From a plasmid, in the NCBI RefSeq assembly GCF_055900595.2, contig NZ_JBVWEU010000004.1: a DNA stretch of 41,714 bases, one strand, 5' to 3'. Made by a program: the position numbers and the translations under genes. The notes below the pieces were generated by a model. That model was not told the DNA's origin. It made no database searches and saw only the letters and a program-made list of their open reading frames with translations. Of the stretch, positions 8,800 to 34,884 are shown piece after piece. Numbering within the stretch: the stretch's first letter is position 1; each line of letters starts with the position of its first letter.

Positions 8800-9160
8800 A
8801 AGATGGGCGGATTTCCACACAGCACCGGCGCCCGGTAAGGTGGGCGGATTCCCACACGGCACCGGCGCCCGGCAAGATGGGCGGATTTCCACACAGCACC
8901 GGCGCCCGGTAAGGTGGGCGGATTTCCACACAGCACCGGCGCCCGGCAAGGTGGGCGGATTCCCACACGGCACCGGCGCCCGGCAAGATGGGCGGATTTC
9001 CACACAGCACCGGCGCCCGGTAAGGTGGGCGGATTTCCACACAGCACCGGCGCCCGGCAAGGTGGGCGGATTCCCACACGGCACCGGCGCGCGGCAAGGT
9101 GGGCGGATTTCCACACGGCACCGGCGCCCGGCAAGGTGGGCCGATTCCCATATCGACATG
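8800..9160. repeat. About ten direct 37-bp iterons (GGGCGGATTTCCACACAGCACCGGCGCCCGG) of the disrupted second replicon
   Basis: Exact 37-bp periodicity from about 8801 to 9134, immediately downstream of the rep fragment. Confidence 0.8.
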
Positions 9161-19743: not shown

Positions 19744-22700
19744 ATGCCCGTTGACTTTCTGACCACTGAGCAGACTGAAAGCTATGGCAGATTCACCGGT
19801 GAACCGGATGAGCTTCAGCTGGCACGATATTTTCACCTTGATGAAGCAGACAAGGAATTTATCGGAAAAAGCAGAGGTGATCACAACCGTCTGGGCATTG
19901 CCCTGCAAATTGGATGTGTCCGTTTTCTGGGCACCTTCCTCACCGATATGAATCATATTCCTTCCGGCGTCCGGCATTTTACCGCCAGACAGCTCGGGAT
20001 TCGTGATATCACCGTTCTTGCAGAATACGGTCAGAGGGAAAATACCCGCCGTGAGCATGCAGCGCTGATACGTCAGCACTATCAGTATCGTGAATTTGCC
20101 TGGCCCTGGACATTTCGCCTTACCCGTCTTTTATATACCCGGAGCTGGATAAGCAACGAACGTCCTGGCCTGCTTTTCGATCTGGCGACAGGGTGGCTTA
20201 TGCAACATCGTATTATTCTCCCCGGAGCCACTACGCTGACCCGGTTGATTTCAGAGGTAAGGGAAAAGGCGACGTTGCGCCTGTGGAACAAACTGGCACT
20301 GATACCGTCAGCCGAACAGCGTTCACAGCTGGAGATGCTGCTGGGGCCAACTGATTGCAGCCGCCTGTCTTTACTGGAATCACTGAAAAAGGGCCCTGTG
20401 ACCATCAGTGGTCCGGCGTTTAATGAAGCAATTGAACGCTGGAAAACTCTGAACGATTTTGGCCTGCATGCTGAAAACCTGAGTACACTCCCGGCTGTGC
20501 GCCTGAAAAATCTCGCACGTTATGCTGGTATGACTTCGGTGTTCAATATTGCCAGGATGTCACCGCAGAAAAGGATGGCGGTTCTGGTTGCCTTTGTCCT
20601 TGCATGGGAAACGCTGGCGCTGGATGATGCATTGGACGTTCTGGACGCCATGCTGGCCGTTATCATCCGTGACGCCAGAAAGATTGGGCAGAAAAAACGG
20701 CTCCGCTCGCTGAAGGATCTGGATAAATCTGCATTGGCGCTCGCCAGCGCATGTTCGTACCTGCTGAAAGAAGAAACACCGGACGAATCGATTCGTGCTG
20801 AGGTGTTCAGCTACATCCCAAGGCAAAAGCTGGCTGAAATCATCACGCTTGTCCGTGAAATTGCCCGGCCCTCAGACGATAATTTTCATGAAGAAATGGT
20901 GGAGCAGTACGGGCGCGTTCGTCGTTTCCTGCCCCATCTGCTGAATACCGTTAAATTTTCATCCGCACCTGCCGGGGTTACCACTCTGAATGCCTGTGAC
21001 TACCTCAGCCGGGAGTTCAGCTCACGGCGGCAGTTTTTTGACGACGCACCAACGGAAATTATCAGTCGGTCATGGAAACGGCTGGTGATTAACAAGGAAA
21101 AACATATCACCCGCAGGGGATACACGCTCTGCTTTCTCAGTAAACTGCAGGATAGTCTGAGGCGGAGGGATGTCTACGTTACCGGCAGTAACCGGTGGGG
21201 AGATCCTCGTGCAAGATTACTACAGGGTGCTGACTGGCAGGCAAACCGGATTAAGGTTTATCGTTCTTTGGGGCACCCGACAGACCCGCAGGAAGCAATA
21301 AAATCTCTGGGTCATCAGCTTGATAGTCGTTACAGACAGGTTGCTGCACGTCTTTGCGAAAATGAGGCTGTCGAACTCGATGTTTCTGGCCCGAAGCCCC
21401 GGTTGACAATTTCTCCCCTCGCCAGTCTTGATGAGCCGGACAGTCTGAAACGACTGAGCAAAATGATCAGTGATCTACTCCCTCCGGTGGATTTAACGGA
21501 GTTGCTGCTCGAAATTAACGCCCATACCGGATTTGCTGATGAGTTTTTCCATGCTAGTGAAGCCAGTGCCAGAGTTGATGATCTGCCCGTCAGCATCAGC
21601 GCCGTGCTGATGGCTGAAGCCTGCAATATCGGTCTGGAACCACTGATCAGATCAAATGTTCCTGCACTGACCCGACACCGGCTGAACTGGACAAAAGCGA
21701 ACTATCTGCGGGCTGAAACTATCACCAGCGCTAATGCCAGACTGGTTGATTTTCAGGCAACGCTGCCACTGGCACAGATATGGGGTGGAGGAGAAGTGGC
21801 ATCTGCAGATGGAATGCGCTTTGTTACGCCAGTCAGAACAATCAATGCCGGACCGAACCGCAAATACTTTGGTAATAACAGAGGGATCACCTGGTACAAC
21901 TTTGTGTCCGATCAGTATTCCGGCTTTCATGGCATCGTTATACCGGGGACGCTGAGGGACTCTATCTTTGTGCTGGAAGGTCTTCTGGAACAGGAGACCG
22001 GGCTGAATCCAACCGAAATTATGACCGATACAGCAGGTGCCAGCGAACTTGTCTTTGGCCTTTTCTGGCTGCTGGGATACCAGTTTTCTCCACGCCTGGC
22101 TGATGCCGGTGCTTCGGTTTTCTGGCGAATGGACCATGATGCCGACTATGGCGTGCTGAATGATATTGCCAGAGGGCAATCAGATCCCCGAAAAATAGTC
22201 CTTCAGTGGGACGAAATGATCCGGACCGCTGGCTCCCTGAAGCTGGGCAAAGTACAGGTTTCAGTGCTGGTCCGTTCATTGCTGAAAAGTGAACGTCCTT
22301 CCGGACTGACTCAGGCAATCATTGAAGTGGGGCGCATCAACAAAACGCTGTATCTGCTTAATTATATTGATGATGAAGATTACCGCCGGCGCATTCTGAC
22401 CCAGCTTAATCGGGGAGAAAGTCGCCATGCCGTTGCCAGAGCCATCTGTCACGGTCAAAAAGGTGAGATAAGAAAACGATATACCGACGGTCAGGAAGAT
22501 CAACTGGGCACACTGGGGCTGGTCACTAACGCCGTCGTGTTATGGAACACTATTTATATGCAGGCAGCCCTGGATCATCTCCGGGCGCAGGGTGAAACAC
22601 TGAATGATGAAGATATCGCACGCCTCTCCCCGCTTTGCCACGGACATATCAATATGCTCGGCCATTATTCCTTCACGCTGGCAGAACTGGTGACCAAAGG

Positions 22701-22749
22701 ACATCTGAGACCATTAAAAGAGGCGTCAGAGGCAGAAAACGTTGCTTAA
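19744..22749 (+). CDS. tnpA: Tn3 transposase TnpA
   Basis: 1001 aa from [17 protein letters not shown]; the stop abuts the Tn3 inverted repeat. Confidence 0.95.
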
Positions 22750-22782
22750 CGTGAGTTTTCGTTCCACTGAGCGTCAGACCCC

Positions 22783-25424
22783 TTGTTCAGGCCGGCATGC
22801 ACGCGGCGGCGCAGTTCAACACTTTGCAGCCAGTCCAGGATGAACAGCGTGCGCTCGATCCGGCCCAGCTCGCGCAGGGCCACGGCCAGTCCGTTCTGGC
22901 GCGGGTAGCTGCCGAGCTTGCGCAGCATCAGCGAGGCGGTGACGGTGCCCTGCTTGATCGAGCTGGCCAGGCGCAGGATGTCGTCCCAGTGGGCACGCAC
23001 GTGCTTGATGTTCAGGGTGCCGCCGATCAGCGGGCGCAACGTCGGGTAGGCTTGCACGCCCTGCGGCACGTACAGTTTGGTTTCGCCGAGGTCGCGGATG
23101 CGCGGCGCGAAGCGGAAGCCTAGCAGGTGCATCAGGGCAAAGACGTGATCGGTGAAGCCGGCCGTGTCGGTGTAGTGCTCCTCGATCCGCAGGTCGGACT
23201 CGTGGTACAGCAGGCCGTCGAGCACATAGGTGGAATCGCGGACGCCGACATTCACCACGCGGGTGCTGAACGGCGCGTACTGGTCGGAGATATGGGTATA
23301 GAACAGCCGTCCCGGCTCGCTACCGTACTTCGGGTTGACGTGCCCGGTGCTCTCGCCCCGGCCACCCGCGCGGAAGCGCTGGCCATCGGAGGATGAGGTC
23401 GTGCCGTCGCCCCAGTGGGCGGCAAAGGCGTGGCGATACTGGTGGTTGACCAGCTCGGCCAAGGCCGCCGAATAGGTTTCGTCGCGGATGTGCCAGGCTT
23501 GCAGCCAGGACAGCTTGGCGTAGGTCAGGCCGGGGCTCGACTCGGCCATCTTGGTCAGCCCGAGGTTGATCGCATCACCGAGGATTGCGGACAGCAGCAA
23601 CGTCCTGTCTTTGGCCTCGGCCCCGTCCTTCAAGTGGGTGAAGTGGCGGCTGAAGCCCGTCCAGTCGTCCACGTCCATCAGCAGTTCGGTGATCTTGATG
23701 CGCGGCAGTAACTGGCTGGTTTGGTCGATCAGCGCCTGCGCCCGATCCGGCACCGCCGCATCCAGCGGGGTGATTTTCAGCCCTGACTCGGTGAGGATGG
23801 CATCGGGCAGCTCGTTGTCCTTGGCCAGGCGGGTGACGGTGGCCAACTGCTCGTCCAGCAGCTGCAAACGCTCTTCCAGGTACTGGTCGCTGTTCGGGTT
23901 GATCGCCAGGGGCAGGGCCTGCTCGCGCTTGAGTGCGGCGAACTTCTCGGCCGGCAGCAGGTAGTCGTCGAAGTCGCGGAACTGCCGCGAGCCCTTGACC
24001 CAGATGTCGCCGGAGCGCAGGGCGTTCTTCAGCTCGGACAGGGCGCAGATTTCGTAGAATTTCCGGTCGAGGCCTTCCGGGGTGATCACCAGCGGCTTCC
24101 AGCGCGGCTTGATGAAGGCCGTGGGTGCATCGGCCGGCACCTTGCGCAGGTTGTCGGCGTTCATCTCACGCAGGGTCTGCACGGCTGCCAGCACGCCTTG
24201 CGCGGCCGGCGCGGCGCGCAGTTCCAGCACCTCCAGCAAGGCCGGCGTGTAACGGCGCAGGGTGGCGAAGTTCTCGCCGACCAGGTGCAGGTGGTCGAAG
24301 CCTTCCGGCCGGGCCAGCAGCTCGGCCTCGCTGACGCTCTCGGTGAACTCGTCCCAGGGAATCACCGCCTCGATGGCGGCATAGGGGTCGCTGCCGCTTT
24401 CCTTCGCTTCCAGCAGCGCCTGGCCGATCCTGGAGTACAGGCGCACCTTGTCGTTGATCGCCTTGCCCTGCTTCTGGAACTGCTGCTGATGCTTGTGCTT
24501 CGCGCCGCTGAACAGCTTGACCAGGATGCGGTCATGCAGATCGACCAGCTCATCGATCACGGTCGCGGTGCTCTCCAGCACCACGGCGGCCAGGGTCGCG
24601 TAGCGGCGCTGCGGCTCGAACTTACCGAGGTCTTTGGGCGTCATCTGCCCACCCTCGCGGGCCAGCTTGAGCAGGCGGTTCTGGTGGATGTGCCGGCCCA
24701 GGCCTTCGGGCAAGTCCACCAACTGAAATGTCTTCAGCCGCTCGATGTGTTCCAGCATGTGCCGAGAGTTGGGTTTCAGCGGTGCCTGGCGCAGCCAGGT
24801 CAACCAGGTGATGCTGCTGCCGGCCTTGAGCTTCAACAGCTCGTCCAGCTTGGCCCGATGCGAGTCCGTGAGTGGTTCGACCAGGGCGCGGTAGACCCGC
24901 CGATTGGCTCGCGCAATGGCTTCCGAGCAGGCCCGGTCAATCACGCTCAGCGCCGGCAGGATGCGTCGTTTCTGCCGTAGGCTCTCCAGGGCCTGACCGG
25001 CCAGCAGCAAGCCTTTGTCGGTCTGCTGGGCCAGCTCGGTTAGCTCGCGCACCAGGGCGCGGAAGTCGGACAGGCCGAACGGGGCCAGTTGCAGGTAGGT
25101 GCGCAGTTCCTGGGCATGCTCGCGACGGGTCACGTCGCGCTCGCCGTACTTTGCCCAGCTCGCCGGCTCGGCCTGGACTTGCTTCGCCACCCACAGGATG
25201 ACCGGCTCGGGCAGCTCGCTGTCGGTTCCCAGCGCGTAACCGGGGTAGCGCAGCAGGCAGAGCTGCACGGCGAAGCCGAGGCGGTTGGCGTCGCCGCGTC
25301 GCTGGCGGATCAGCGACAGGTCGGAGTCGTTGAAGGTGTAGTAGCGGATCAGGTCATCCTGGCTTTCCGGCAGCGCAAGCAGGGTGTCCCGCTCCGTGGC
25401 CGAGAGGATCAAGCGACGCGGCAT
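22783..25424 (-). pseudogene. tnpA: Tn1721-type tnpA, 5' 2.6 kb, gene disrupted by the Tn3 insertion
   Basis: N-terminus [31 protein letters not shown] (Tn21-subgroup transposase); the frame runs into the Tn3 IR. Confidence 0.85.
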
Positions 25425-25427
25425 GTG

Positions 25428-25988
25428 TCAGTCGTCCGTGCGGAGGTACTGGTAGAGGGTTTCCCGGCTGATGTTGAACTCGCGGGCAAGCTGCGCCTTG
25501 GGCTCGCCGGCCGTCGCTCGCTGCCGCAGGGTAGCAGCCTGCTCATCGGACAGGGCTTTCTTGCGGCCCCGGTACGCGCCACGCTGCTTGGCCAAGGCGA
25601 TGCCCTCACGCTGCCGCTCGCGGATCAGGGCGCGCTCGAACTCAGCGAAGGCCCCCATCACCGACAGCATCAGGTTGGCCATCGGCGAGTCCTCGCCAGT
25701 GAACACCAGGCCCTCCTTCAGGAACTCGATGCGCACGCCGCGCTGAGTCAGCTTCTGTACCAAGCGACGCAGGTCATCGAGGTTGCGGGCCAGCCGATCC
25801 ATGCTGTGCACCACCACTGTATCGCCTTCGCGGACGAAGCTCAGCAGCGCTTCGAGCTGGGGGCGCTGGGTGTCCTTGCCCGATGCCTTGTCGGTGAACA
25901 CCTTGCTCACCTGGGTTTGTTCCAGCTGGCGTTCCGGGTTCTGGTCAAAGCTGCTGACCCGGACGTAGCCGATGCGGTGCCCCTGCAC
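25428..25988 (-). CDS. tnpR: Tn21/Tn1721-type resolvase TnpR
   Basis: 186 aa, MQGHRIGYVRVSSFDQNPERQ serine recombinase. Confidence 0.9.
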   Translation of the reverse strand: MQGHRIGYVRVSSFDQNPERQLEQTQVSKVFTDKASGKDTQRPQLEALLSFVREGDTVVVHSMDRLARNLDDLRRLVQKLTQRGVRIEFLKEGLVFTGEDSPMANLMLSVMGAFAEFERALIRERQREGIALAKQRGAYRGRKKALSDEQAATLRQRATAGEPKAQLAREFNISRETLYQYLRTDD

Positions 25989-26160
25989 GATGTCTCCTTG
26001 GTTGAAGGCGGCTTAAGTGCACTTTCTGTTCCGTTGTGCCTCAAAGCCCATTTCTGTCAGGCTGAAATCTATAACCTTCGCGGGCATGTGTCAAAAAATG
26101 GGAAAGCAGACTCTATTCTGACGAAGCGGCGCGGCCCTGCCTGACATCAAGTTAGGGTAT
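25989..26160. promoter_or_regulatory. Tn21-subgroup res site region
   Basis: Intergenic segment upstream of tnpR with TGTCAGG-type repeats; likely the junction between the Tn1721-like and Tn21-like segments. Confidence 0.5.
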
Positions 26161-26163
26161 GCC

Positions 26164-26514
26164 TCAACCTGACGGCGGCGAATCACAAGCGTCCGGTTTG
26201 ACGCTGGTTTCGGTCGCAGTGCTGGCCCGCGCCTGGAAGCGCTGATAGCACTCCAGCCCGCAGAAATGCTCCACGTACTCGGCCCCTTCCGGCGTGAAGG
26301 CGGCATCGAGCGGGATTTCCTTGCAGCACACGCAGCAACTGGTGCTCGGTTCATTGGCGTTCATGGTGGTGTTCCTCCATTGGTTGACGAAGCCGACGAA
26401 GGCCGCCGCCGGCATCGGCCTGGCGAACAGGAAACCCTGCACCGTGTCGCAACCCGCCTGCCGCAACCACGCAAGGCAGTCGGGTGTTTCCACACCCTCG
26501 GCTACCACCTCCAT
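26164..26514 (-). pseudogene. urf2/tnpM remnant (EAL-domain C-terminal fragment) truncated by the integron IRi
   Basis: Translation ...[30 protein letters not shown]... begins at the integron boundary. Confidence 0.5.
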
Positions 26515-26539
26515 TGTCGTTTTCAGAAGACGGCTGCAC
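26515..26539. repeat. Class 1 integron IRi (25 bp)
   Basis: TGTCGTTTTCAGAAGACGGCTGCAC. Confidence 0.8.
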
Positions 26540-26716
26540 TGAACGTCAGAAGCCGACTGCACTATAGCAGCGGAGGGGTTGGATCCATCAGGCAACGACG
26601 GGCTGCTGCCGGCCATCAGCGGACGCAGGGAGGACTTTCCGCAACCGGCCGTTCGATGCGGCACCGATGGCCTTCGCGCAGGGGTAGTGAATCCGCCAGG
26701 ATTGACTTGCGCTGCC

Positions 26717-27730
26717 CTACCTCTCACTAGTGAGGGGCGGCAGCGCATCAAGCGGTGAGCGCACTCCGGCACCGCCAACTTTCAGCACATGCGTGTAAAT
26801 CATCGTCGTAGAGACGTCGGAATGGCCGAGCAGATCCTGCACGGTTCGAATGTCGTAACCGCTGCGGAGCAAGGCCGTCGCGAACGAGTGGCGGAGGGTG
26901 TGCGGTGTGGCGGGCTTCGTGATGCCTGCTTGTTCTACGGCACGTTTGAAGGCGCGCTGAAAGGTCTGGTCATACATGTGATGGCGACGCACGACACCGC
27001 TCCGTGGATCGGTCGAATGCGTGTGCTGCGCAAAAACCCAGAACCACGGCCAGGAATGCCCGGCGCGCGGATACTTCCGCTCAAGGGCGTCGGGAAGCGC
27101 AACGCCGCTGCGGCCCTCGGCCTGGTCCTTCAGCCACCATGCCCGTGCACGCGACAGCTGCTCGCGCAGGCTGGGTGCCAAGCTCTCGGGTAACATCAAG
27201 GCCCGATCCTTGGAGCCCTTGCCCTCCCGCACGATGATCGTGCCGTGATCGAAATCCAGATCCTTGACCCGCAGTTGCAAACCCTCACTGATCCGCATGC
27301 CCGTTCCATACAGAAGCTGGGCGAACAAACGATGCTCGCCTTCCAGAAAACCGAGGATGCGAACCACTTCATCCGGGGTCAGCACCACCGGCAAGCGCCG
27401 CGACGGCCGAGGTCTTCCGATCTCCTGAAGCCAGGGCAGATCCGTGCACAGCACCTTGCCGTAGAAGAACAGCAAGGCCGCCAATGCCTGACGATGCGTG
27501 GAGACCGAAACCTTGCGCTCGTTCGCCAGCCAGGACAGAAATGCCTCGACTTCGCTGCTGCCCAAGGTTGCCGGGTGACGCACACCGTGGAAACGGATGA
27601 AGGCACGAACCCAGTTGACATAAGCCTGTTCGGTTCGTAAACTGTAATGCAAGTAGCGTATGCGCTCACGCAACTGGTCCAGAACCTTGACCGAACGCAG
27701 CGGTGGTAACGGCGCAGTGGCGGTTTTCAT
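26717..27730 (-). CDS. intI1: Class 1 integron integrase IntI1
   Basis: 337 aa full length; tyrosine recombinase motifs; Arg32/Asn39 variant. Confidence 0.95.
27615..27643 (+). promoter_or_regulatory. Integron cassette promoter Pc, strong variant (TTGACA-N17-TAAACT)
   Basis: -35 at 27615-27620 and -10 at 27638-27643, inside intI1 on the cassette strand. Confidence 0.7.
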
Positions 27731-27874
27731 GGCTTGTTATGACTGTTTTTTTGTACAGTCTATGCCTCGGGCATCCAAGCAGCAAGCGCGTTACGCCGTG
27801 GGTCGATGTTTGATGTTATGGAGCAGCAACGATGTTACGCAGCAGGGCAGACGCCCTAAAACAAAGTTAGCCAT

Positions 27875-28372
27875 ATGAACTCGGAATCAGTACGCATTTA
27901 TCTCGTTGCTGCGATGGGAGCCAATCGGGTTATTGGCAATGGTCCTAATATCCCCTGGAAAATTCCGGGTGAGCAGAAGATTTTTCGCAGACTCACTGAG
28001 GGAAAAGTCGTTGTCATGGGGCGAAAGACCTTTGAGTCTATCGGCAAGCCTCTACCGAACCGTCACACATTGGTAATCTCACGCCAAGCTAACTACCGCG
28101 CCACTGGCTGCGTAGTTGTTTCAACGCTGTCGCACGCTATCGCTTTGGCATCCGAACTCGGCAATGAACTCTACGTCGCGGGCGGAGCTGAGATATACAC
28201 TCTGGCACTACCTCACGCCCACGGCGTGTTTCTATCTGAGGTACATCAAACCTTCGAGGGTGACGCCTTCTTCCCAATGCTCAACGAAACAGAATTCGAG
28301 CTTGTCTCAACCGAAACCATTCAAGCTGTAATTCCGTACACCCACTCCGTTTATGCGCGTCGAAACGGCTAA
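27875..28372 (+). CDS. dfrA12: Trimethoprim-resistant dihydrofolate reductase, dfrA12-like
   Basis: 165 aa, MNSESVRIYLVAAMGANRVIGNGPNIPWKIPGEQ; first cassette after attI1. Confidence 0.9.
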   Translation: MNSESVRIYLVAAMGANRVIGNGPNIPWKIPGEQKIFRRLTEGKVVVMGRKTFESIGKPLPNRHTLVISRQANYRATGCVVVSTLSHAIALASELGNELYVAGGAEIYTLALPHAHGVFLSEVHQTFEGDAFFPMLNETEFELVSTETIQAVIPYTHSVYARRNG

Positions 28373-28779: not shown

Positions 28780-29571
28780 ATGAGGGAAGCGGTGACCATC
28801 GAAATTTCGAACCAACTATCAGAGGTGCTAAGCGTCATTGAGCGCCATCTGGAATCAACGTTGCTGGCCGTGCATTTGTACGGCTCCGCAGTGGATGGCG
28901 GCCTGAAGCCATACAGCGATATTGATTTGTTGGTTACTGTGGCCGTAAAGCTTGATGAAACAACGCGGCGAGCTTTGATCAACGACCTTTTGGAAACTTC
29001 GGCTTCCCCTGGAGAGAGCGAGATTCTCCGCGCTGTAGAAGTCACCATTGTTGTGCACGACGACATCATTCCGTGGCGTTATCCAGCTAAGCGCGAACTG
29101 CAATTTGGAGAATGGCAGCGCAATGACATTCTTGCAGGTATCTTCGAGCCAGCCACGATCGACATTGATCTGGCTATCTTGCTGACAAAAGCAAGAGAAC
29201 ATAGCGTTGCCTTGGTAGGTCCAGCGGCGGAGGAACTCTTTGATCCGGTTCCTGAACAGGATCTATTTGAGGCGCTAAATGAAACCTTAACGCTATGGAA
29301 CTCGCCGCCCGACTGGGCTGGCGATGAGCGAAATGTAGTGCTTACGTTGTCCCGCATTTGGTACAGCGCAGTAACCGGCAAAATCGCGCCGAAGGATGTC
29401 GCTGCCGACTGGGCAATGGAGCGCCTGCCGGCCCAGTATCAGCCCGTCATACTTGAAGCTAGACAGGCTTATCTTGGACAAGAAGAAGATCGCTTGGCCT
29501 CCCGCGCAGATCAGTTGGAAGAATTTGTTCACTACGTGAAAGGCGAGATCACCAAGGTAGTCGGCAAATAA
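28780..29571 (+). CDS. aadA: Aminoglycoside (3'')(9) adenylyltransferase AadA, apparently mosaic (aadA2-like 5' end, aadA1-like remainder)
   Basis: 263 aa; residues about 1-65 (TIEISNQLSEVLSV...VAVKLDETTRR) resemble aadA2, the remaining about 200 aa match my recollection of aadA1 (RLASRADQLEEFVHYVKGEITKVVGK). Confidence 0.9.
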   Translation: MREAVTIEISNQLSEVLSVIERHLESTLLAVHLYGSAVDGGLKPYSDIDLLVTVAVKLDETTRRALINDLLETSASPGESEILRAVEVTIVVHDDIIPWRYPAKRELQFGEWQRNDILAGIFEPATIDIDLAILLTKAREHSVALVGPAAEELFDPVPEQDLFEALNETLTLWNSPPDWAGDERNVVLTLSRIWYSAVTGKIAPKDVAADWAMERLPAQYQPVILEARQAYLGQEEDRLASRADQLEEFVHYVKGEITKVVGK

Positions 29572-34064: not shown

Positions 34065-34884
34065 GGCACTGTTGCAAAGTTAGCGATGAGGCAGCCTTTT
34101 GTCTTATTCAAAGGCCTTACATTTCAAAAACTCTGCTTACCAGGCGCATTTCGCCCAGGGGATCACCATAATAAAATGCTGAGGCCTGGCCTTTGCGTAG
34201 TGCACGCATCACCTCAATACCTTTGATGGTGGCGTAAGCCGTCTTCATGGATTTAAATCCCAGCGTGGCGCCGATTATCCGTTTCAGTTTGCCATGATCG
34301 CATTCAATCACGTTGTTCCGGTACTTAATCTGTCGGTGTTCAACGTCAGACGGGCACCGGCCTTCGCGTTTGAGCAGAGCAAGCGCGCGACCATAGGCGG
34401 GCGCTTTATCCGTGTTGATGAATCGCGGGATCTGCCACTTCTTCACGTTGTTGAGGATTTTACCCAGAAACCGGTATGCAGCTTTGCTGTTACGACGGGA
34501 GGAGAGATAAAAATCGACAGTGCGGCCCCGGCTGTCGACGGCCCGGTACAGATACGCCCAGCGGCCATTGACCTTCACGTAGGTTTCATCCATGTGCCAC
34601 GGGCAAAGATCGGAAGGGTTACGCCAGTACCAGCGCAGCCGTTTTTCCATTTCAGGCGCATAACGCTGAACCCAGCGGTAAATCGTGGAGTGATCGACAT
34701 TCACTCCGCGTTCAGCCAGCATCTCCTGCAGCTCACGGTAACTGATGCCGTATTTGCAGTACCAGCGTACGGCCCACAGAATGATGTCACGCTGAAAATG
34801 CCGGCCTTTGAATGGGTTCATGTGCAGCTCCATCAGCAAAAGGGGATGATAAGTTTATCACCACCGACTATTTGCAACAGTGCC
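34065..34884 (-). mobile_element. IS26 (820 bp)
   Basis: 14-bp terminal inverted repeats GGCACTGTTGCAAA; no 8-bp target duplication. Confidence 0.95.
34117..34821 (-). CDS. tnpA: IS26 transposase Tnp26
   Basis: 234 aa from MNPFKGRHFQRDIILWAVRWYCKYGISYRE. Confidence 0.95.
   Translation of the reverse strand: MNPFKGRHFQRDIILWAVRWYCKYGISYRELQEMLAERGVNVDHSTIYRWVQRYAPEMEKRLRWYWRNPSDLCPWHMDETYVKVNGRWAYLYRAVDSRGRTVDFYLSSRRNSKAAYRFLGKILNNVKKWQIPRFINTDKAPAYGRALALLKREGRCPSDVEHRQIKYRNNVIECDHGKLKRIIGATLGFKSMKTAYATIKGIEVMRALRKGQASAFYYGDPLGEMRLVSRVFEM

Follow-up and report, generated by a model that had tools for sequence, protein, structure and literature searches.

A Tn1721/Tn21 hybrid junction at res subsite I in an IncR resistance plasmid

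Introduction

Junctions that join a Tn1721 arm to a Tn21 arm at the resolution site (res) have already been described and are very common in resistance plasmids. The term 'Tn21/Tn1721 hybrid resolution site' was used for such a junction in a report that cites several earlier accounts of hybrids and that places, in the hybrid of pTZ41_1P_HI2, a sul3 class 1 integron at the In2 position (PMC7355605); pCERC3 is cited in the same report only for its Tn21-associated sul3 integron (PMC7355605). An intact hybrid of 22,570 bp, Tn7714, has been shown to transpose (Munoz-Gutierrez et al., 2024, PMC11332342), and another example has been reported (PMC12955435). In the res sites of Tn3-family transposons, strands are exchanged at the centre of site I (PMC13367494).

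The hybrid described here lies in a stretch of 41,714 nucleotides of plasmid DNA (contig NZ_JBVWEU010000004.1 of assembly GCF_055900595.2), which as a whole is referred to below as the window. Diver et al. are said to have found in 1983 that the tnpR genes of Tn21, Tn501 and Tn1721 cross-complement, and that work, together with that of Rogowsky et al. from 1985, is the basis for the view that the parental resolvases may act on each other's res. Rogowsky and Schmitt reportedly saw, in 1984, a Tn501/Tn1721 hybrid cointegrate resolved at res. That laboratory hybrid is alike in principle, a resolvase of this subgroup joining the res sites of two related transposons, with the recombination site defined by the crossover, but it came from an experimental pair, whereas the hybrid in the window is a natural product of Tn21 and Tn1721.

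Results

The junction region occupies positions 25989–26539, that is, the gap between a minus-strand tnpR (25428–25988) and the integron inverted repeat IRi (26515–26539). Its first base, 25989, lies immediately upstream of the start codon of tnpR, and the region is flanked by a minus-strand Tn3-family transposase gene on the left and by intI1 on the right. These limits, already given in the initial annotation, are accurate, being set by the start codon of tnpR and by an exact IRi. The same annotation had taken the transposase and its inverted repeats (IRs) to be of Tn1721 type and the sequence past res to be the urf2/tnpM remnant and IRi of Tn21 in place of the left end of Tn1721; it advised aligning the region to both transposons, and a fit of the whole segment to one of them would have spoken against a hybrid. 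We therefore scored parentage position by position in a three-way MAFFT alignment of the window, Tn1721 and Tn21, with BLAST alongside. The Tn21 reference was that of plasmid R100 (R100/NR1; NC_002134), and the Tn1721 reference was the copy in pFBAOT6 (NC_006143), which has orfI (a methyl-accepting chemotaxis gene), tnpR and tnpA in the canonical order. The features of the hybrid are collected in Table 1.

Table 1. Features of the Tn1721/Tn21 hybrid, with positions in the window.
Feature	Position	Strand	Evidence
Tn1721 IRR-II, 38-bp terminal IR, outer end of the hybrid	11982–12019	+	exact match
tnpA', truncated duplicate, Tn1721 tet arm	12020–13770	-	12087–13770 99.9% identical to pFBAOT6 tnpA
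Tn1721 tetracycline module	14300–17171		ORFs; matching records annotated tet(A), EamA
pecM/EamA	14300–15184	+	
tetA(A)	15216–16490	-	
tetR(A)	16494–17171	+	
Tn1721 IRR-I, 38-bp IR at the tnpA end	17470–17507	+	exact match
3' part of Tn1721-type tnpA	17508–17832	-	17575–17832 100% identical to pFBAOT6 Tn1721
Tn2/Tn3-type blaTEM transposon, complete, 4950 bp	17833–22782	+	perfect 38-bp Tn3-type IRs at both ends
5' part of Tn1721-type tnpA	22783–25424	-	DUF4158 and DDE_Tnp_Tn3 (Pfam); one mismatch to pFBAOT6
tnpR, serine resolvase	25428–25988	-	Resolvase and HTH_7 (Pfam)
tnpR leader and tnpR-proximal res (subsites III, II, spacer)	25989–26145		100% identical to Tn1721
Hybrid res subsite I	26146–26173		three-way alignment, informative-site table, dyad scan
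tnpM, 116 codons, 3' remnant of Tn21 urf2	26164–26514	-	100% identical to R100 Tn21
IRi, 25-bp integron inverted repeat at the intI1 end	26515–26539	+	exact match; 0 matches in 100 shuffles
intI1, class 1 integron integrase	26717–27730	-	ORF; annotated intI1 in identical records

On the left, from 22783 to 26160 (tnpA, tnpR and res as far as the centre of subsite I), a single mismatch, T23076, separates the window from the Tn1721 of pFBAOT6 over 3378 bp (99.9% identity across 22780–26164 by BLAST). The same side is only distantly related to Tn21, with 75.5% nucleotide identity over 3.2 kb (BLAST) and values of 57–89% in 200-bp bins. The translated TnpR is identical to the TnpR of pFBAOT6 Tn1721 and shares 82.5% of its amino acids with that of Tn21, and TnpA, read from the repaired gene, has 73.6% amino acid identity to Tn21 TnpA. 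Both exact copies of the 38-bp Tn1721 IR are in the orientation expected of IRR-II and IRR-I; a search of the window found neither a Tn21 IR nor a Tn1721 IR in inverse orientation.

On the right, positions 26151–27615, comprising the other half of subsite I, the tnpM/urf2 remnant, IRi and most of intI1, are 100% identical to the Tn21 of R100 over 1465 bp (99.4% across 26141–27878 by BLAST), whereas identity to Tn1721 in 200-bp bins is 23–52%, so that this side is effectively unaligned. By Pfam, the tnpM product is made up of the final 33 residues of an EAL domain and, after them, DUF3330, and urf2 is cut by the integron at the same place as by In2: IRi is at the In2 position, and the alignment to R100 runs unbroken across the boundary. 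The element is not Tn1721 proper, as beyond 26160 its sequence is that of Tn21 instead of the orfI/IRL arm, nor is it Tn21 proper, as its tnpA, tnpR and complete res are not of Tn21 type. The hybrid junction is thus confirmed, far beyond chance, and the initial annotation was right about the parent of each side and about the missing left end of Tn1721; no single reference transposon accounts for the whole segment, in which identity changes abruptly and only once.

This change is clean. All informative sites up to and including 26150 are of Tn1721 type, among them 26 of the 26 listed in 26100–26140, and all those from 26161 onwards are of Tn21 type, the last Tn1721-specific base being A26150 (G in Tn21) and the first Tn21-specific base G26161 (A in Tn1721). 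The switch is therefore bracketed to the 10 bp GTTAGGGTAT, at 26151–26160, which end on the central AT (26159–26160) of subsite I; it is to this bracket, not to the AT itself, that the crossover is resolved. Around the junction the parents have 9 + 10 bp in common, CTGACATCA[A/G]GTTAGGGTAT, and uninterrupted identity across the switch amounts to 10 bp, or to 20 bp if one mismatch is allowed.

The interval coincides with a centre of symmetry. A dyad-symmetry scan of 25985–26200 gave its strongest centre at 26159/26160, where 9 of 14 arm positions are complementary and the half-sites read ATCAAGTTAGGGTA and, as reverse complement, GTCAGGTTGAGGCA; a search of res for inverted repeats from exact seeds came up empty, as the two half-sites do not match perfectly. 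Subsite I is the res subsite farthest from tnpR, and the subsite boundaries used here come from dyad symmetry and alignment, not from footprints. Its left half-site, ATCAAGTTAGGGTA, with the diagnostic A26150, is of Tn1721 type, and its right half-site, TGCCTCAACCTGAC, with the diagnostic G26161, is of Tn21 type, while the central GGGTAT, including the AT, is present in both parents, so that 2-nt overhangs would be compatible. The stop codon of tnpM also falls inside subsite I. The crossover point in subsite I, which the initial annotation had suggested looking for, could accordingly be placed within 10 bp, at the dyad centre.

The junction is widespread. A query of 201 bp (26060–26260) was covered to at least 80% in 852 of the 3813 matching PLSDB plasmids, which come from many genera and mostly match at 100% identity, and about one in five of the plasmid records with either half has the hybrid junction; it is also present in 313 of 5426 complete E. 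coli genomes. NC_006671, which we take to be pAPEC-O2-R (2005), is among the plasmid matches. The reciprocal junction was assembled computationally as a synthetic query, with 100 bp from the tnpR side of Tn21 and 100 bp from the orfI side of Tn1721. At least 281 plasmids cover 80% or more of this query, and it is matched at 100% identity over the full length in every record among the matches listed. In pC59-153 (NC_025179.1, 5418–7815) the order is catA1, Tn21 tnpA, Tn21 tnpR, res and Tn1721 orfI, and the proteins at the junction bear the same accessions as those of R100 and pFBAOT6. Both of the products expected from an exchange at precisely this point of subsite I are therefore in circulation.

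The hybrid in the window is no longer intact. IRR-II abuts the IncR backbone at 11981/11982, and backbone matches in other IncR plasmids end at 11981. Within the tet arm, 15930–17470 and the corresponding tet(A)/tetR(A) segment of pCFSAN061769_03 share 99.8% identity. The blaTEM transposon, which matching records annotate as Tn2 and blaTEM and which is framed by a 5-bp target duplication, TTGTT (17828–17832 and 22783–22787), cuts tnpA in two; when the 3' part of the gene is joined to 22788–25424, an open frame of 987 codons is restored. Only three plasmid records among the matches cross the boundary of this insertion, most relatives having an IS26/blaTEM rearrangement there. At the far end, an IS26 (34065–34884) cuts the sul3–mef(B) end and joins the integron region directly to the IncR backbone (vapBC, integrase), and as a result the mer module and the Tn21 IR are gone; a search of the window for homology to the mer of R100 found none, and a tni remnant is likewise absent. 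With tnpA split by the Tn2-type element, and with the mer end and its IR removed by IS26, the hybrid would no longer be mobile as a unit, and from its sequence we regard it as a decayed, immobile relic.

The integron carries a sul3-type array, dfrA12-orfF-aadA2/1-qacL-IS-sul3. Its intI1 departs from that of R100 by two substitutions near the 5' end (27616 and 27641), and a GGG triplet that R100 has upstream of intI1, at the position matching 27752, is missing from the window; these three differences presumably reflect another Pc promoter variant and the lack of the P2-creating insertion. The aadA cassette (28780–29571) is itself an aadA2/aadA1 hybrid with a switch at 28949–28962, its first 22 informative sites being of aadA2 type and the other 117 of aadA1 type. 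Compared with the array dfrA12-orfF-aadA2-cmlA1-aadA1-qacL of pCFSAN061769_03, the array here lacks the 3' part of aadA2, the whole of cmlA1 and the 5' part of aadA1, a sequence pattern consistent with a deletion by homologous recombination.

The window seems to contain an entire circular IncR plasmid (backbone 1–11981 and 34885–41714) opened at the ATG of the rep gene, and its last 1500 bp, when joined to its first 1500 bp, are with them colinear with the IncR plasmid CP099300.1 (3000 bp, 99.9%). Short tandem or iterated repeats lie at 950–1340, beside rep, and at 8800–9150, downstream of umuCD, with self-similar BLAST matches of 85–97% at offsets of about 36–72 bp; presumably these are iterons or partition-site repeats. 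NZ_CP010149.1 and pCFSAN061769_03 are 99–100% identical to parts of the window but differ in the cassette array or in the flanks, and no record was found that covers 80% of window positions 10000–34000.

Set against its two parents, the locus matches the Tn21 of R100 in the distal half of subsite I, in tnpM, IRi and intI1, which are identical over 1465 bp, and in the insertion site of the integron, but it differs in tnpR, tnpA and subsites II and III (about 75% nucleotide identity) and has neither the Tn21 IR nor mer. With the Tn1721 of pFBAOT6 it shares tnpA, tnpR, res up to the centre of subsite I, IRR-I, the tet module, tnpA' and IRR-II, all at 99.9–100%, whereas from 26161 on Tn21 sequence stands in place of the orfI arm and IRL.

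Among published hybrids, Tn7714, compared here by its description (PMC11332342), likewise has tnpR, tnpA, tet(A) and two IRRs from Tn1721, a res that is about 99% Tn1721, and tnpM, intI1 and an In2-position integron from Tn21. Unlike the window, Tn7714 still has a functional tnpA together with mer and the Tn21 IR, and its cargo includes dfrA5 and an IS26 strAB–sul2 unit, where the window has the sul3-type integron; in the window, in turn, the Tn2-type element interrupts tnpA, and IS26 has removed mer and the Tn21 IR. The window thus contains the Tn1721 tnpR–tnpA and tet arm with its two IRRs, and the Tn21 tnpM and In2-position integron joined to it by the hybrid res, but not the mer module, the terminal IR of Tn21 or an intact transposase gene. 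As the mer module and the Tn21 IR are missing, we class it as a truncated derivative and not as a complete member of the Tn7714 type. The hybrid of pTZ41_1P_HI2 has the same junction and an integron of the same sul3 family, but it and the examples cited with it are on IncHI2 or ColV backbones instead of IncR, and the window, in contrast to pTZ41_1P_HI2, is without mer and cmlA1 and has the aadA2/aadA1 hybrid cassette. Several other published Tn21/Tn1721 hybrids differ from this one and were rejected as precedents, among them the AbaR0/R1215 tnpA hybrid (PMC4899885), the homologous-recombination hybrid of O104:H4 (PMC4326458) and pO26-CRL, in which oriV lies between the modules.

Discussion

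In light of the sequence comparisons above, we consider it very probable that the segment is a recombinant res site made by a resolvase crossover at the centre of subsite I. A Tn21-subgroup serine resolvase (TnpR) would have paired the res of a Tn1721 with the res of a Tn21, cut both at the central AT of subsite I (26159–26160) and rejoined the half-sites crosswise, to give a junction with ...TCAAGTTAGGGTA on one side of the point of exchange and TGCCTCAACC... on the other. The product would have kept, from Tn1721, the inner half of subsite I, subsites II and III, tnpR, tnpA, IRR-I, tetR, tetA, pecM, tnpA' and IRR-II, and, from Tn21, the distal half of subsite I, tnpM, the class 1 integron at the In2 position and, originally, mer; the orfI/IRL arm of Tn1721 and the tnpR–tnpA arm of Tn21 would have been lost from it. 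Both the enzyme and its cleavage at the AT are what we infer from this arrangement. Most simply, one replicon would have carried both a Tn1721 and a Tn21, directly oriented; this geometry we offer as a conjecture, because the sites on which resolvases act must normally be direct repeats within a single supercoiled molecule.

It is very unlikely that RecA-dependent homologous recombination in the short res stretch common to the parents produced the junction without a resolvase, even though they do share the 9 + 10 bp around it and other published Tn21/Tn1721 hybrids, in tnpA or between In2 derivatives, have been ascribed to homologous recombination (PMC4899885; PMC4326458). Longer and better-matched tracts in tnpA and tnpR, in bins of up to 89% identity, were left unused, the switch lies instead at the dyad centre of subsite I, and the exact reciprocal product exists. 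Efficient RecA recombination in E. coli usually needs roughly 25 bp, and the mere 10 bp of unbroken identity at the switch fall short of this, which argues against such a route.

Less probable again is an ancestral arrangement, in which a natural, Tn501-like mercury transposon of the Tn21 subgroup had a Tn1721-like res and tnpR beside urf2 from the outset. A Citrobacter freundii plasmid, NZ_MF344582.1 (165286–165486), matches the full 201-bp query at 86.6% and hints that a Tn1721-like res next to a urf2-like gene does occur naturally; this record may hold another Tn21-subgroup element of that kind or a different res hybrid. An ancestral relative would, however, diverge on both sides of the junction, and the near-identity of both flanks to the named references, together with the abrupt switch between them, speaks against it. 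Moreover, the integron insertion in the right flank is the In2-specific one of Tn21, and the left flank runs on into the Tn1721-specific tet arm with its duplicated IRRs. An assembly chimera, in which two copies of a transposon were collapsed into one or wrongly joined at a repeat common to both, can practically be dismissed: the repeated Tn1721 tnpA segments and IRs of the window can mislead assemblers, but the identical 201-bp junction recurs across many genera, in about 850 independent plasmid records, as well as in the E. coli genomes counted above, and the 10–20 bp shared at the join are too short for repeat collapse.

We thus favour a resolvase-mediated exchange at res, as the initial annotation had proposed; the change of identity is confined to 10 bp, the last two of them being the central AT of subsite I, and so supports it. 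That the mixed subsite I might differ from the parental sites in resolution efficiency or resolvase binding, and so have aided the success of the hybrid, seems to us very doubtful; the abundance of the hybrid is more simply put down to hitch-hiking with its tet(A), integron and mer cargo.

The hybrid, its res site and its mobility have all been published, and no new biology is claimed here. As we read it, the junction illustrates how resolvase exchange at res would swap whole arms between related Tn3-family transposons, an exchange that would have coupled the transposition and tetracycline module of Tn1721 to the integron module of Tn21, and originally to its mercury module as well. Its recognition is useful for the correct annotation of resistance regions and for tracing plasmid lineages.
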